Shown here piece after piece: positions 8,011 to 59,170 of a stretch of DNA of 64,000 nucleotides; position 1 is the stretch's first letter; the number at the start of each line of letters is the position of its first letter. The stretch lies in the UHGV virus genome UHGV-0076293. The stretch is one strand, 5' to 3'. This DNA is from a virus. The translations under genes and the position numbers were made by a program. Under the pieces are notes generated by a model that was not told where the DNA came from, did not search any database, and saw nothing but the letters and a program-made list of their open reading frames with translations.

Positions 8011-8065
8011 TATTTTCAGATATATATTACTTAGGTGAGAGAATTACGTAATACTCATTTATCGA
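8011..8065 (+). promoter_or_regulatory. phage promoter-like element with downstream 5'-UTR hairpin (copy 1)
   Basis: TTTTCAGATATATATTACTTAGGTGAGAG followed by an imperfect palindrome; about 25 nt upstream of an AGGAG RBS; one of five near-identical copies. Confidence 0.6.
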
Positions 8066-34848: not shown

Positions 34849-34890
34849 TCAGATATATATTACCTTAGTGAGATTACACAGTAATCACTT
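34843..34890 (+). promoter_or_regulatory. phage promoter-like element with downstream 5'-UTR hairpin (copy 2)
   Basis: TTTTTTCTCAGATATATATTACCTTAGTGAGA followed by an inverted repeat (TTAC...GTAATCAC). Confidence 0.6.
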
Positions 34891-45111: not shown

Positions 45112-45156
45112 CCTACCGCCCGATTCTATGGGCGGTAGGTGTTTTATTTTTTTTTG
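45112..45156 (+). terminator. intrinsic terminator
   Basis: CCTACCGCCC-GATTCTAT-GGGCGGTAGG followed by T9. Confidence 0.8.
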
Positions 45157-45171: not shown

Positions 45172-45735
45172 GTGGCCACATCTTACGTACCTGATTTGAG
45201 TCTGACCTCAGCAGAGCTAGTGGTCGCTTTAATCAATCATGATAACGGGTTACAGCTTACGCTAAACGAAATCCGTATTAGCGGAACCGTAACAAACCCA
45301 TCACCAACAACTTCGCGTCGTAACACCATCACCGAAATCAGTAAAATCAGAAAACCGGATGGTGCGTCTGTTGTGGTCTACTACGACAGACTTGACGCCG
45401 ATGAGGTATTAACGTCTGAACCTATTTTGATTTCGTTAGACGGTACCGAAGCGATTATCCGTGACGTTCTGAGTGTTGTAAATGAACACTGCGGTACGAA
45501 CTTACAGCCTGAAGACTTACGCGTTTCTGATATTACTTCAGGTAACGATCCTATTGCCGTTAACGTTGCCGACGATTCACCTGCGTGGATGAATGCGTTT
45601 ATGGTGACGTTATTTGATAAAACTGAGCGTGCGTTAGCGAACGAAGAAGATGAAATCTTCTGCATCGGTGACGATAGCGTTCTTACCTTTGAGGTTCCAG
45701 ATGACGACTCAGCTGAAGAAAACCCGACTACATGA
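45172..45735 (+). CDS. fibre-associated protein, paralog A1 of a four-member family
   Basis: GTG start after GGAGGG; shares PDLSLTS...NHD...YYDRLDA...CGTNLQ...CIGDDSVLTF with the gene at 51471; sits directly upstream of a tail fibre gene. Confidence 0.6.
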   Translation: MATSYVPDLSLTSAELVVALINHDNGLQLTLNEIRISGTVTNPSPTTSRRNTITEISKIRKPDGASVVVYYDRLDADEVLTSEPILISLDGTEAIIRDVLSVVNEHCGTNLQPEDLRVSDITSGNDPIAVNVADDSPAWMNAFMVTLFDKTERALANEEDEIFCIGDDSVLTFEVPDDDSAEENPTT

Positions 45736-45940
45736 ACTTGATGATTTTTACCGGTAATGGAGGACAAAGCAAACTTTTATCAAGACTTAGCAAACCAAAA
45801 TCATGAAAACGCGAAATTGAACATCGCTTTCACGTTAGAAGATGATGTATTAAAACCAGGGCAATAGTAACCCGCTTATAAAAAATTGGGGGGTAAACTA
45901 CTCTCCTGATCTTTTAGCTCCCGATAGAGAATTAAATATC

Positions 45941-50260: not shown

Positions 50261-50803
50261 ATGGCAGTTGTTGAAGTTCCAGGTTATATCGGTTCTTCTG
50301 CAAAGGAAGTTACTGGCGAAGAGATGATGTCTGAAGCGATGACCGAACTCGGCGTTGTCGTACCAGGGATGATGTCTGAAATGGCAGGTCTGTCAATGGG
50401 TTGCTATGTAACGTTTGAGGAGTGGACTACCGTTGAAGATGGCCTTGATGTTCGATGGATCGGTGCGTCTACTTCCGAGTGGACAGACGGCTACGGCAAA
50501 CCGGTCGTTAAAGGAAAAATATCCGGGGCGAAGATGTTTGGTTTGAATGTCGAAGCGGAGCTGATCGGAATGCACTATAAAAAGCATCCGCGATTCCCTT
50601 GGTCAGTCGAACTAAAATGTCGCTGCGAAAAAGGTAGCAATTTCAGTTATACGTTAGACGGTGTAAGCGGTTCTGTATCGAGTGATGGTACCGGTACAAC
50701 CGGAATGCAAATTCGTACATTCAAATTTAACAATTTCAGTGCAGCATTTAAGGAAAAGATAGAGCAAGTTGGTGTCAAGATGCCAACATCACGTAAATAT
50801 TAA
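50261..50803 (+). CDS. hypothetical protein, paralog X1
   Basis: N-terminal GSSAKEVTGEEMMSEA...MMSEMAGLSMGC motif shared with the gene at 50865. Confidence 0.65.
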   Translation: MAVVEVPGYIGSSAKEVTGEEMMSEAMTELGVVVPGMMSEMAGLSMGCYVTFEEWTTVEDGLDVRWIGASTSEWTDGYGKPVVKGKISGAKMFGLNVEAELIGMHYKKHPRFPWSVELKCRCEKGSNFSYTLDGVSGSVSSDGTGTTGMQIRTFKFNNFSAAFKEKIEQVGVKMPTSRKY

Positions 50804-50815
50804 AAGAGTAGCGTA

Positions 50816-50825
50816 GGGGGGGGGG
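50816..50825. repeat. poly-G tract (G10) inside a GC hairpin
   Basis: homopolymer GGGGGGGGGG pairing with a downstream C6 run. Confidence 0.9.
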
Positions 50826-50853
50826 AGGTCACCCCCCTACGCGAATCTTAACA

Positions 50854-50862
50854 GGGGGGGGG
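50854..50862. repeat. poly-G tract (G9) forming the ribosome-binding region of the gene at 50865
   Basis: GGGGGGGGG ends 2 nt before the ATG. Confidence 0.9.
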
Positions 50863-50864
50863 TA

Positions 50865-51368
50865 ATGGCGGTTAACTCGGGTTGGGTCGGTTCTTCGGCT
50901 AAGAGCGAAACGGGCGAACAGTGGATGAGCGCTGCGGGTGCCAAATTGGGATTGGGTAAACCTTTTATGATGAGTCAAATGGTGGGACGATCTATGGGCT
51001 GTAAAATTTCAACTGCTGCATATAGTGATTCTTTAGGTAAGAAATGGGGTGCTGTGGGATCAAGTTGGCCATTAACTCAGAAAAATCAGGGAACCATTCA
51101 AAACGCGGGTAACTGCGGGGTGGGAACTTTAGTAGGTATAGAGTTACAATTAACGACGGTAGTTGCCAACGCAACGCCTACTCTAGCGGTCTATTTACAA
51201 GGCGGCAGGGCCTCTAACATCACTGCAAATCTAGGCGGTAACACTTGTGCGCTGACCTATCAGCAGGTTATTAATGGCCAACATTATTACTGGACCAATA
51301 ACATTAGTGCCGCGTTCCAAAACGTGATGAAATCGACCGGTACACTAAGAGATTTCAAAATTAGTTAA
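50865..51368 (+). CDS. hypothetical protein, paralog X2
   Basis: GSSAKSETGEQWMSAA...MMSQMVGRSMGC; flanked by poly-G tracts. Confidence 0.65.
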   Translation: MAVNSGWVGSSAKSETGEQWMSAAGAKLGLGKPFMMSQMVGRSMGCKISTAAYSDSLGKKWGAVGSSWPLTQKNQGTIQNAGNCGVGTLVGIELQLTTVVANATPTLAVYLQGGRASNITANLGGNTCALTYQQVINGQHYYWTNNISAAFQNVMKSTGTLRDFKIS

Positions 51369-51405
51369 TTATTTTTCAAACGAATGTGTTTGAAAACGTA
51401 ATCGA

Positions 51406-51415
51406 GGGGGGGGGG
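51406..51415. repeat. poly-G tract (G10)
   Basis: homopolymer about 55 nt upstream of the gene at 51471. Confidence 0.9.
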
Positions 51416-51470
51416 TGAAGTGTTTTTAGCCAACATTTTATGTCTCCCCAACCGTAGGAGGTAAATATAC

Positions 51471-51983
51471 GTGGAACAATTCACGCCAGATTTGTCGTTA
51501 ACTTCACTTAACATGGTTATTTCACTGGTTAACCATGACCTCCAACTTGACTTGCAAGAGAATGAGGTCGAAGTCAGTGACGTAAAGACCAGTGACGAAA
51601 TGGAACGTGACACCACTGCTGTTGTAAAGATAAAACGTTCTGGTAACAGAACGTTACAAATCTACTACAACCGTTTAACTGCAGAGCGGTGGTTAAACCG
51701 ACAACCTGTACTTGTAAAAGTAACAGGCGAAGGGTTTAATGCGCACGATCTAATCGAATCCATCAACACCGTTTGTGGTGCTAACTTACAAACCGACGAT
51801 TTAACCGACCAGTCGTTCACGGTGGGTAAAGACGCGGTAATATTTAGCATCGCTCCGAGTTCCCTCGGCTACAAAGGTCAGTTCTCCGTGGTGGTTTTCG
51901 GTCCAGATGAAACACCGTGTGGTATCGGTGACGATTCTGTCGTGCTAACGTTTGACAATAAAATCTTAACCTTTGGAGAGTAA
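51471..51983 (+). CDS. fibre-associated protein, paralog A2
   Basis: GTG start after AGGAGG; paralog of the gene at 45172; directly upstream of the second fibre gene. Confidence 0.6.
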   Translation: MEQFTPDLSLTSLNMVISLVNHDLQLDLQENEVEVSDVKTSDEMERDTTAVVKIKRSGNRTLQIYYNRLTAERWLNRQPVLVKVTGEGFNAHDLIESINTVCGANLQTDDLTDQSFTVGKDAVIFSIAPSSLGYKGQFSVVVFGPDETPCGIGDDSVVLTFDNKILTFGE

Positions 51984-51986
51984 TAG

Positions 51987-54119
51987 ATGAGTCAGCCAAT
52001 TGGAAAGAAGCGTATTCATGAGCTGGAAACATTTGAAGGTGAATTAGCAGGAGTCGTTCTGCTGATGTCCAAAGACGACAAAGAATATAAACTTGACGCA
52101 TCTCGTTTACAAAACGATAAGCTGTATCTAGCTTGCGGTACACCTTTTCCTAAACTAGTATTCCAAAACGATAAAACACATTACAATATTAATCCGTACA
52201 GTGACTACGACACTTATGAAGTTTCTGCAAATAAAGGTCGGGTATCTAAAGTTACTCGTGCCACATTTAGCGTGATGGCTGGGTCTTTATCGGTTGGCGA
52301 GAAAATACAACTTACAGTTACGCGCAATGGCGTACCATTTCAATTTGAAGTTACCGTATCGGGACCGCGTATCACTACTCCCACTTGGACACTTCCAGTT
52401 AATGGCGGTAAATTGAGCGTAACGCCAACCTTTGAAGTAACTGACTATCAAGCCTATCCATATACCAACACCGGTAATCAACAGACCGCTGCCAGTTGGG
52501 AAATTTCCACTAGTGAAGATTTCTCAACTACAGTTTTCCAATCACTGAACGACACCGTCAACAAAACAACCATCAGTATCCCAGAAGGTAAGTTAGAACC
52601 AGGTCAAACTTACTACGCACGTGTTCGCTTCCATAACGCAGTAACCGAAAGTGATTGGTCCGTTGTTCAATTCTCAGTCGGCGAAGCATTTATTCAGCGT
52701 CCTGCACTGATCGAACCCACCGTAGACATGGTGTTAAGCGCATCGAATATTACACTTAAAACTGATGTTTTTAAATGGGTCGGTGACGAACCTGCGGAGA
52801 CCCACGTATCGACTGACTGGCAGGTTACTTACGGTAGCAACGATTTTGACGAAATGAATAATCTCGTTAACCAATTAGAAGATGCGATTAACCTGACGTC
52901 GCTTAAATTACCGTCTGATCGGGTTTACGTTAATAACAGTTATCGTGCACGCGTGCGTTTTCGTGGTGAGAGAAGCGTCAGTGATTGGTCTGAACCTTTA
53001 ACGTTCCGTGTAAGTCGCGGGAACGTACCAACAAGTGAATTCCAGTCAATTTCTGCTTCTGGATTTACAGGTAATTCAATCGGTGCTGAGTTGGCATGTA
53101 CTGACGACGGTTTGCTGTTTGCTGCTACTGGCGTTGCACAGAAAGCGAAATTCTTACATATCTTTAAGAAAGACTTCCCGTCTTACAACAAAGTTGCCTC
53201 TTTAACAGCTGCTACTGAGGTTGACGCAGACAGAGATGGTCGCTGTCCGGTCAGTATGTCAGCCGACGGTAAGATTATTGTTGTCGGTGTTAGCGCATCT
53301 AAAGCTAACGAAGACCACGGCGAAGTTATCGTTTACCGTAACCCAGATAACGCTGAGTGGAGTACAATCAACGGAATAACTTTAGCGGGATTACCCACAG
53401 AAGGGTTCCATGGCCTTGCAGTAAAACTGTCAAAAGACGGCAATCGTTTGATTGTGGGTAACGGTACGAAAGTGCTGTCTATGTATTCCAATACCGATCA
53501 ATTTGCTACACGTACGGCTGTGTCGCCGACACTAAGTGCCGAAGACGCCACTTGTGGTGGTATTGGTAGCATTGCAATGTCTGAAGACGGTAACGGTTTA
53601 GTGCTTGGCGAAACTAACGGAACGAAATTCCACGTACTGGCTTGGGAATCGGATAGTTGGGTGTCTAAGGCATCTATTACACCAAAAGACTTGACTGAGA
53701 AAGCAACGATTAAAGTCGCTGCTTCTTCTGACTTGTCTACGATTCTTGTTTCTGTAGTTGAGACACACAAATACTACGTTTACAAGAAAACCGGTGATAG
53801 TTGGTCTCTGTTCCAAACCTTGGATTATACCGAACTGGATTACTCCATTACTTCTACCCGTTACCCGACGGGAGACATTAATGTTGCGCCTTCCGGAAGC
53901 TGGTTAATTTTCGGTATGGTGGGTTCGTTGGGTTCTATTTTCGAATTTCGTAATAGTACCTACCAACGACAAAATAGCATTTACGGCAGTAGTCTTAGCG
54001 ATCCTGAGAATTACCACTTCTATACGTCACAAGCCATCAGTGCACAAAACGATTTGTTCGTCGGTGCTGATGTTAAAGAAAGTGCTTCGTACTTCCCACA
54101 AATCAAAGTTTACATGTAA
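51987..54119 (+). CDS. second tail fibre / receptor-binding protein (710 aa)
   Basis: N-terminus KKRIHELETFEGELAGVVLLMSKDDKEYKL is homologous to the N-terminus of the 1438-aa fibre; two FN3-like units (YYARVRF...SDWS, YRARVRF...SDWS); C-terminal repeated S-x-DG-x-x-(I/L)-(V/I)-x-G beta-propeller-like blades. Confidence 0.7.
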   Translation: MSQPIGKKRIHELETFEGELAGVVLLMSKDDKEYKLDASRLQNDKLYLACGTPFPKLVFQNDKTHYNINPYSDYDTYEVSANKGRVSKVTRATFSVMAGSLSVGEKIQLTVTRNGVPFQFEVTVSGPRITTPTWTLPVNGGKLSVTPTFEVTDYQAYPYTNTGNQQTAASWEISTSEDFSTTVFQSLNDTVNKTTISIPEGKLEPGQTYYARVRFHNAVTESDWSVVQFSVGEAFIQRPALIEPTVDMVLSASNITLKTDVFKWVGDEPAETHVSTDWQVTYGSNDFDEMNNLVNQLEDAINLTSLKLPSDRVYVNNSYRARVRFRGERSVSDWSEPLTFRVSRGNVPTSEFQSISASGFTGNSIGAELACTDDGLLFAATGVAQKAKFLHIFKKDFPSYNKVASLTAATEVDADRDGRCPVSMSADGKIIVVGVSASKANEDHGEVIVYRNPDNAEWSTINGITLAGLPTEGFHGLAVKLSKDGNRLIVGNGTKVLSMYSNTDQFATRTAVSPTLSAEDATCGGIGSIAMSEDGNGLVLGETNGTKFHVLAWESDSWVSKASITPKDLTEKATIKVAASSDLSTILVSVVETHKYYVYKKTGDSWSLFQTLDYTELDYSITSTRYPTGDINVAPSGSWLIFGMVGSLGSIFEFRNSTYQRQNSIYGSSLSDPENYHFYTSQAISAQNDLFVGADVKESASYFPQIKVYM

Positions 54120-54692: not shown

Positions 54693-54736
54693 GGTAGCAG
54701 GGGCTTAGCCCCTGCTACCTTTTTCTTTATTTTTTC
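54693..54736 (+). terminator. intrinsic terminator
   Basis: GGTAGCAGGGGC-TTA-GCCCCTGCTACC followed by a T-rich stretch. Confidence 0.85.
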
Positions 54737-54782
54737 TCAGATATATATTACCTAGAGGAGAGTGAAATTTACATTCACTCCA
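54731..54782 (+). promoter_or_regulatory. phage promoter-like element with downstream 5'-UTR hairpin (copy 4)
   Basis: TTTTTTCTCAGATATATATTACCTAGAGGAGAGTGAA followed by an inverted repeat ending TTCACTCC. Confidence 0.6.
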
Positions 54783-59118: not shown

Positions 59119-59170
59119 TAATTTCAGATATATATTACCTAGGTGAGAGTTCAGTTACTCTCACTTAACC
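59119..59170 (+). promoter_or_regulatory. phage promoter-like element with downstream 5'-UTR hairpin (copy 5)
   Basis: ATTTCAGATATATATTACCTAGGTGAGAGT-TCAGT-TACTCTCAC; clean 8-bp stem. Confidence 0.65.

Follow-up and report, generated by a model that had tools for sequence, protein, structure and literature searches.

The fibre locus and its poly-G tracts

The 64,000-nucleotide (nt) stretch of UHGV virus genome UHGV-0076293 that we analysed, hereafter called the window, carries three long poly-G tracts placed around the gene for a small receptor-recognising protein in a tail-fibre operon. The window is, judged by its sequence, part of a novel, uncultivated SPN3US-like jumbo phage of Enterobacteriaceae with a genome of ~225 kb, because its major head protein has 78-80% identity with the corresponding proteins of SPN3US, phiEaH2, and other jumbo phages related to them, and a megablast search of an INPHARED-based phage collection returned no close relative at the DNA level. 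A terminator scan shows that two canonical terminators enclose a single host-range operon (Table 1), in which a gp37-like fibre gene with a Peptidase_S74 chaperone lies upstream of two adhesin genes, adhesin-1 standing between the fibre gene and adhesin-2. A second fibre module comes next, and the gene for a DUF4376 protein, after the 710-amino-acid (aa) second fibre, is last in the operon order.

Table 1. Host-range operon of the window, its poly-G tracts, and its borders (positions in the window).
Feature	Position	Strand	Remarks
Intrinsic terminator (hairpin and T-run, T9 at 45147-45155)	45112-45155	+	Upstream border of the fibre operon
DUF7941 virion protein gene	45172-45735		First gene of the operon
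Site 0 G-run/C-rich hairpin (G6 at 45888-45893)	45885-45910	+	48 nt 5' of the fibre gene
Long tail-fibre gene, 1438 aa	45941-50257	+	T-even gp34/gp37 type; C-terminal Peptidase_S74 intramolecular chaperone domain
Adhesin-1, 180 aa	50261-50803	+	Gp38_N domain
Tract 1 intercistronic hairpin, GCGTA-G10-AGGTCA-C6-TACGC	50811-50842	+	G10 (50816-50825) is the 5' arm
Tract 2, G9, Shine-Dalgarno (SD) region of adhesin-2	50854-50862	+	
Adhesin-2, 167 aa, short gp38-type receptor-recognising protein	50865-51368	+	Gp38_N domain
Hairpin immediately 3' of the adhesin-2 stop codon, TTTCAAAC/GTTTGAAA	51374-51395	+	
Site 3 leader hairpin	51406-51449	+	Outer stem with tract 3, G10 (51406-51415), as 5' arm
SD AGGAGG (51456-51461) and DUF7941 virion-protein gene (GTG 51471 to 51983)	51456-51983	+	Opens the second fibre module
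Second fibre gene, 710 aa	51987-54119	+	No poly-G at the joint after base 52112
Intrinsic terminator	54693-54730	+	End of the fibre operon; mosaic breakpoint in all relatives

A homopolymer census of all 64,000 bases finds tracts 1, 2, and 3, no further G run of at least 7, and no C run of at least 7. From the base composition, only ~0.10 runs of at least G9 and 0.025 runs of at least G10 are expected in 64 kb, so three long G runs within 600 bp are far beyond chance. The census bears out the first-pass annotation, which had described the tracts as the sole long G homopolymers in 64 kb, all within 600 bp, and the positions that it had given them also agree with our results. The first tract lies in a G10/C6 hairpin that can be read directly from the sequence; the second is the ribosome-binding region and ends 2 nt from an ATG that is confirmed as the start by Pfam; and the third lies ~55 nt before the paralogue that it had called A2, with 55 nt between tract 3 and the GTG codon. 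All three tracts are at least ~7 long, a length able to slip, and all three are intergenic, none of them lying in a reading frame.

The start of adhesin-2 is set by its Gp38_N domain (PF21721, E = 1.2e-20), in which residues 1-40 align with profile positions 1-40 in Pfam, indicating that the ATG at 50865 is the true start and that tract 2 is non-coding. Residues 1-61 match gp38 of phage S16 (PDB 6F45 chain D). Stx prophages and the phage-plasmid CMS-2020a have a 'receptor recognizing protein Gp38' that shares 61-63% identity with adhesin-2. Adhesin-1 and adhesin-2 are 30% identical. No match to PF05268, the T2/S16-type C-terminal domain with glycine-rich motifs, was found by Pfam in either of them, and this domain is found in the long gp38 of relatives; adhesin-2 is of the short type (phrog_1121), and a search of IMG/VR gave no adhesin-1 homologues. 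Tandem gp38-family adhesins after the fibre gene (50261-51368 in the window) are a feature of the clade and are seen in the related genomes and contigs L005, L007, L038, L050, L068, L074, and others. The usual pair in relatives is a long T2/S16-type gp38 with PF05268 and then a short adhesin with Gp38_N only. Klebsiella KLB31, a T-even-like phage, likewise has two gp38-family adhesins.

The tract 1 hairpin (11 bp, -29.6 kcal/mol, z = -3.6) is formed by 11-bp inverted repeats (GCGTAGGGGGG/CCCCCCTACGC). The tract 3 hairpin is a two-part, 17-bp structure, with the G run and UCUCCCC as the outer stem and UGAAGUGUUU/AACAUUUUAU as the inner one, and its 3' end lies 6 nt upstream of the SD of the DUF7941 gene. 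G.U pairs are present in both of its stems, implying that the folding takes place in the + strand RNA, and it folds in all relatives, including L005 and L038, where the stem and loop sequences are different. The hairpin that follows adhesin-2 is kept in L004, L005, L006, L048, and L050, and the changes in its stem preserve pairing.

Searches for known classes of element gave the following results. No Rfam family was found between 45700 and 52000 with E values up to 1. The tract hairpins were rejected as intrinsic terminators: their stems are G+C-rich, but no U-run lies directly 3' of them, the tract 1 hairpin being followed by GAATCTTAACA and the tract 3 hairpin by AACCGTAGGAGG. A sigma-70 promoter scan gave a site count not above that of shuffled sequences, with no site on the + strand at the tracts. 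The TTGAAA-N-TGAAAT pair across tract 3 has low weight as a promoter, because its spacer in the window would be 20 nt and because transcription in phiKZ-like phages relies on polymerases of the phage itself, with promoters that are not predictable in this group (PMC7598289). A phiKZ-type late promoter TATG in the tract 3 loop was rejected as well, since TATG is present in the window and L007 and is TACG in L004 and L006; the derived motif TAYGTCYCC occurs only twice in 64 kb. Coupled translation of a small open reading frame (ORF) through tract 2 by a UAAUG was discarded on direct reading, which gives no start codon in that frame, and a lone run of 9-10 G is unable to form an intramolecular G-quadruplex. 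An invertible DNA switch of the Mu G/P1 C or shufflon type was also set aside: inverted repeats are present, but the segment between them is 6 nt long and has no coding capacity. The nine ORFs between 45941 and 56940 gave no match to a recombinase domain, in a search that did not extend to other parts of the genome.

Tract length variation and its predicted effect on expression

Exact-protein look-ups retrieved the contig of the window itself and near-identical genomes from other samples, and a metagenome pattern scan returned one contig; some of the assemblies compared may share samples. Among the genomes 99.6-100% identical to the window, L043 and L065 have the alleles of the window (tract 1 G10, loop AGGTCA, tract 2 G9, tract 3 G10). 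L044 and L045 have G4 in tract 1, the loop TGACCT, G10 in tract 2, and G9 in tract 3, and L056 has the same set with G10 in tract 3. L054, whose contig covers neither tracts 1 and 2 nor the loop, has G8 in tract 3. The first-pass annotation had taken the tracts to be prone to slippage and had proposed a comparison of their lengths among related isolates; as expected, the lengths differ among these otherwise near-identical genomes, with G4 or G10 in tract 1, G9 or G10 in tract 2, and G8-G10 in tract 3.

Every indel among these genomes lies in a homopolymer. The window and L044/L045 are separated by 24 single-nucleotide polymorphisms (SNPs) in 12.5 kb, and all four of their indel events fall in homopolymers of at least 9 (three G tracts and one T tract), while L056 and L044 show no SNP in 6.8 kb and differ by one 1-nt indel, in tract 3. 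In the T-run of the upstream terminator, the window has T9 and both L044 and L045 have T11, indicating that long T runs also vary between near-identical genomes.

The loop of the tract 1 hairpin (50826-50831) changes from AGGTCA to its exact reverse complement, TGACCT, in L044, L045, and L056, giving the allele GCGTA-G4-TGACCT-C6-TACGC in genomes 99.8% identical to the window. This change is a flip of the hairpin, reproduced in three assemblies. Small hairpin-loop inversions between short inverted repeats occur in chloroplast non-coding DNA, and the exchange of AGGTCA and TGACCT between 11-bp inverted arms in such similar genomes is like them, whereas the flip described here is in a phage, lies 5' of a receptor-binding gene, and is accompanied by a change of tract length.

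The tracts had also been named a likely site of sequencing or assembly error, and part of this claim stands. The Logan contigs L046, L047, L079, and L083 start or end exactly in a tract, a pattern that seems to fit heterogeneity or read errors alike, and exact tract lengths may be uncertain by about 1 nt. An origin of the runs, or of their length differences, in Illumina or assembler errors would also agree with the P0002 protein call, which runs frameshifted into tract 3 at a contig end, and with L044 and L056, which may share a sample and differ only at tract 3. We regard such an origin as very improbable, however. Long G runs stand at identical positions, between unique flanks, in more than 25 independent assemblies (ENA, JGI, Logan, and NCBI) from various samples and pipelines, and in a closed E. 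coli replicon, indicating that the tracts are not an assembly artefact. In addition, spans of 4-6 nt (G4 vs G10, G6 vs G10, and G7 vs G11) are too large for consensus error, and the loop inversion is found in three assemblies.

The first-pass annotation had proposed that the tracts act as a phase switch for the gene they bracket. In this explanation, slippage in tracts 1 and 2 and the hairpin flip would alter the output of adhesin-2 relative to adhesin-1, and the progeny would differ in the gp38 that caps the fibre, which would amount to host-range bet hedging. The tracts lie exactly at the SD and leader of the second tandem adhesin, their alleles differ between near-identical genomes, the tandem of long and short gp38 is conserved, and relatives hold ON and OFF poly-G alleles in host-range ORFs (see below), all of which would be consistent with a switch.

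The properties of the tracts in the window argue against it. All three are non-coding, so no frameshift action is possible, and a frameshift switch is excluded for this window. The 3' end of tract 2 is fixed with respect to the ATG, so a change in its length leaves the SD-ATG spacing unaltered, and the predicted energy of its duplex with the anti-SD saturates at -10.8 to -12.3 kcal/mol from G5-G6 upwards. The predicted energy for opening the adhesin-2 SD and AUG is 2.6-2.9 kcal/mol when tracts 1 and 2 are each varied from G4 to G12 in the loop orientation of the window. It is raised, from ~2.8 to 4.0-5.2 kcal/mol, only in the flipped G4 allele combined with an SD of at least G9; this rise favours a switch, but its modelled effect is roughly twofold rather than ON/OFF. 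The predicted opening energy of the SD downstream of tract 3 is 6.2-6.6 kcal/mol for G5-G11, and tract 3 and site 0 precede genes that do not encode adhesins. In these models, a translational switch by tract length is not predicted in the window, and we consider a switch or rheostat of adhesin-2 expression to be quite unlikely. The broader idea of poly-G contingency is nevertheless right for the clade, because in relatives both the second fibre gene and the start of the adhesin occur with in-frame and with out-of-frame poly-G alleles.

Tracts, coding alleles, and module joints in relatives

Homologous sites in wider relatives show a broad range of run lengths. At site 3, G5, G6, G8, G9, G10, and G11 are found across ~30 related contigs, with at least G12 at one contig end; within one lineage, five contigs have G5 or G6 and a sixth, L073, has G10, and the site reads GGAGGGGG in L038, L059, and L084. 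At site 0, the G6 of the window corresponds to G9-G10 in L005, L007, L048, and L050 and to an interrupted run (G5AGG or GAGGGG) in L058, L059, and L049, with GGGGGAGG in L058 and L059. The adhesin-2 leader, which consists of the hairpin, ~11 nt, the G-rich SD, and the ATG, is homologous to the short-gp38 leaders of Stx prophages (P13374 and phi191), CMS-2020a, L038, and L059, as in the alignment of TCACCCCACGCATTCAGAAGGGGAG with TCACCCCCCTACGCGAATCTTAACAGGGGGGGGG of the window. These leaders share the architecture and, in part, the sequence TCACCCC..ACGC..ATTC..GGGG..ATG, but their G runs are 4-5 long, with GGAGGGG or GGTGGGGG as the SD, whereas the window lineage has G9-G10; the homologues of tract 2 are GGTGGGGG, GGAGGGG, and GGAGGGGG. 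The short or interrupted G runs at homologous sites indicate that the long tracts are expansions of ordinary interrupted G-rich elements. The tracts are real, vary in length among near-identical genomes, and are derived from short G runs.

Closed 'plasmid' records of E. coli 98232 (NZ_CP173450.1) and Enterobacter ludwigii (NZ_CP134650.1) are relatives of this phage, and the E. coli record (221,873 bp) was the one complete genome surveyed for G/C runs. It contains only two such runs of at least 7, both of them G on the sense strand and both in AATC-Gn-loop-Cn hairpins directly 5' of DUF7941 paralogues. One is site 3 (G10), and the other is a G9-TGACCT-C5 hairpin between tandem DUF7941 genes, the core of which matches the tract 1 hairpin of the window lineage at a different locus. 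No G run of at least 7 was found in 30 kb around the fibre locus of SPN3US. In the genomes examined, the tracts are confined to the punctuation and joints of host-range genes. The two closed 'plasmids' (L058 and L060-L064 for E. coli; L059 for Enterobacter) are circular and ~222 kb long, and relatives also occur as ~225-kb contigs in Salmonella and Shigella isolate assemblies; proteins P0003, P0004, and P0009-P0014 belong to this set of relatives. Such deposits suggest a carrier state or pseudolysogeny and point to likely hosts.

Poly-G tracts also lie within ORFs in relatives. One lineage has such a tract in its second fibre gene, the product of which is a 708-aa protein with SASA and DUF6645 domains: ten contigs (L074-L083) read ...CTT CAA G(n) TG ACG... 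~126 nt into the ORF (for example, with the tract at L075:3962-3971). The gene is intact with G10 in five contigs (708 aa where the contig holds the whole gene) and with G7 in two (707 aa in L077; L078 is cut by the contig end), while it is split into 45 + 663 aa with G9 in two contigs and into 61 + 663 aa with G11 in one; the flanks of the tract are identical across these alleles. L074 and L075 show 10 SNPs in 6.7 kb, and their sole 1-nt indels are at site 3 and in this coding tract. L075 and L077, only 3 SNPs apart, differ by a 240-bp in-frame indel in the long fibre gene (~locus 315-554), which suggests that the fibre shaft has gained or lost repeat units.

The start of the short adhesin, where a G run occupies codons 2-4, shows a similar variation. 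It reads ATG-G5-TA in most relatives, G8 in L006 (L006:5992-6003), which stays in frame and adds one Gly, and G4 in L070, which gives ATG GGG TAG and is out of frame. The N-terminal extension ...RWGGVASGW of P0014 would require G9 at this start, and P0019 starts at Met21; these two proteins imply, from protein sequence only, that there are more out-of-frame adhesin alleles. Adhesin gene calls of 187 and 147 aa lie behind the putative G9 and the other out-of-frame state (P0014, P0018, and P0019).

The tracts coincide with mosaic joints, as the suggestion of a recombination site in the first-pass annotation had anticipated. BLAST breakpoints show that the homology of the window to L005 ends at 51409, inside tract 3, and that its homology to L007 and L038 begins at 51406-51408; L007 and L038 have common sequence to the left of tract 3 and different sequence to the right. 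L004 and L085 lack the segment 50306-50864, which contains most of adhesin-1 and tracts 1 and 2, and in both of them the adhesin directly follows the fibre gene. The coding tract of the second fibre gene lies exactly at the joint between a conserved 42-residue N-terminus and the variable receptor-binding remainder, and this N-terminus is common to the 708-aa fibre and the 710-aa gene of the window, which has no tract there. These breakpoints could mean that the G tracts, with their short AATC flank, are recombination linkers, that is, microhomology joints for the exchange, duplication, and deletion of host-range cassettes, their length variation being a side effect. The direct G10 repeats that flank adhesin-2 and the occurrence of the Gn-TGACCT-Cn hairpin core at an unrelated locus of another genome also speak for such linkers. 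However, any conserved intergenic element would resemble a boundary, and the terminator at 54693 is a breakpoint as sharp as the tracts in all relatives, indicating that conserved punctuation in general, and not poly-G alone, marks the joints. A pure G tract is also dispensable at a joint, since L038, L059, and L084 have GGAGGGGG there, and no recombination intermediate or nuclease was identified. We regard recombination linkers as an unlikely explanation of the tracts.

Two other features of the genome were recorded. DUF7941 paralogues number at least six per genome (45172-45735, 51471-51983, and 62695-63997 in the window; L065:15675-20516). Each fibre module is headed by one of them, with G-tract leader hairpins 5' of some, and the DUF7941 proteins may be fibre adaptors. 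A 25-nt AT-rich motif, TCAGATATATATTACCTAGGTGAGA, has four intergenic + strand copies (8016-8040, 34849-34873, 54737-54761, and 59124-59148) with none expected; it often stands directly after a terminator and is followed by a small hairpin, and it probably represents the consensus of early promoters that the virion RNA polymerase recognises.

Origin and possible roles of the tracts

We find it reasonably probable that the tracts arose from ordinary G-rich punctuation of a late host-range operon by expansion to hypermutable poly-G, with an effect on expression that is small at most. In this explanation, interrupted purine runs such as GGAGGGGG, GGTGGGGG, and GGGGGAGG would have turned into pure G runs, and G would then be gained and lost by replication slippage, the length polymorphism itself being observed. 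The tracts of the window would thus be members of a clade-wide poly-G set limited to host-range genes and module joints. Each extra G would be a surplus base of a 5' arm or of an SD, while the C-rich, anti-SD-like 3' arms would stay sequestered. Surplus G would be tolerated because the C-rich 3' arm stays paired, whereas an expansion of C would sequester the SD, so that only sense-strand G runs would expand. Because surplus G leaves the 3' arms paired, the effect on expression would be small and quantitative at most.

Several observations weigh against this explanation. Site 3 keeps pure runs of G9-G11 across lineages in which the genes on either side are only 75-88% identical, and the G tracts are always on the sense strand, with C arms never longer than 6. 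The covariation of the tract 3 hairpin in RNAalifold is weak (one compensatory pair, covariation term +0.57), because most relatives are near-identical there. The folding models describe an equilibrium and ignore kinetics, ribosome traffic, and phage factors, and the 1-nt differences between assemblies could be homopolymer consensus errors. The hairpins are also candidates for roles of their own, as an RNA stabiliser, a processing site, a terminator, or a promoter element of the phage RNA polymerase. The purity of site 3 across lineages, the sense-strand bias, and the restriction to host-range genes suggest that the tracts are under selection and not merely tolerated, and because they look selected, the rheostat and the recombination linkers keep the low probabilities given above rather than none. 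A bolder proposal, to which we assign a low probability, is that a widespread clade of enterobacterial jumbo phages uses poly-G as punctuation dedicated to generating diversity at its host-range locus. The same element would serve as ON/OFF switch or rheostat (in ORFs, SDs, and leader hairpins), as flip-flop hairpin, and as microhomology joint for swapping fibre and adhesin cassettes, with selection keeping the tracts pure and on the sense strand. As a speculation, poly-G punctuation might be favoured by replication in a phage nucleus from which the mismatch repair of the host is excluded.

Expansion of ordinary punctuation, as we favour it here, can be compared with known systems. In the bacterial simple-sequence contingency loci of Neisseria, Haemophilus, and Bordetella, a homopolymer in a promoter or 5' leader changes length by slippage and can tune expression; it sets the spacing of the -35 and -10 elements or sits in an ORF. 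The tracts of the window are like them in being homopolymers outside ORFs that vary in length, and unlike them in that the distance from tract 2 to the ATG is fixed, the models show no dependence on length, and no promoter was identified. To our knowledge, Enterobacteriaceae hosts do not rely on poly-G phase variation as Campylobacter does. The distal fibre/gp38 locus of T-even phages reportedly recombines between conserved short motifs, an account said to go back to Tetart, Desplats and Krisch in 1998 (J Mol Biol); the motifs there belong to the coding sequence of gp37 and gp38 and are of the Gly-rich or His-box type. The window shares with that locus a gp37-like fibre with a gp38 adhesin, short G-rich or Gly-coding motifs at segment borders, and mosaic relatives, but its joints are pure homopolymers, mostly intergenic and in hairpins.

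In Campylobacter Fletchervirus phages, receptor-binding protein genes contain hypermutable poly-G and undergo phase variation (Sorensen et al. 2021, Cell Rep 35:109214, cited in PMC10579305 and PMC10877375). The resemblance lies in poly-G of about 7-11 that is concentrated in phage host-range genes and varies in length in otherwise identical genomes, and in the in-frame tracts with ON and OFF alleles that relatives of the window have within the fibre-2 gene and where the adhesin begins. The tracts of the window differ in being non-coding (two hairpin arms and one SD) and in lying at module joints of a ~225-kb SPN3US-like jumbo phage. Full-text literature searches turned up no account of poly-G tracts in the fibre loci of enterobacterial or jumbo phages. 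What is new here is that a hypermutable poly-G set in a jumbo phage host-range operon is for the most part non-coding, forms part of hairpins, and stands at module joints, while its coding members occur in relatives. Experimental proof of hypermutable poly-G in phage receptor-binding genes is so far known only for Campylobacter phages.

The clade turns up in human-gut metagenomes and in isolate assemblies of E. coli, Salmonella, Shigella, and Enterobacter. Because contigs break and gene calls split at the tracts, these fibre genes will come out wrong in annotation pipelines. That tracts and module joints coincide offers a testable handle on the exchange of fibre cassettes. Should the tracts tune or switch the fibres and adhesins, even one phage stock would contain several host-range variants side by side, and such mixed stocks would bear on host-range prediction, phage therapy, and typing.

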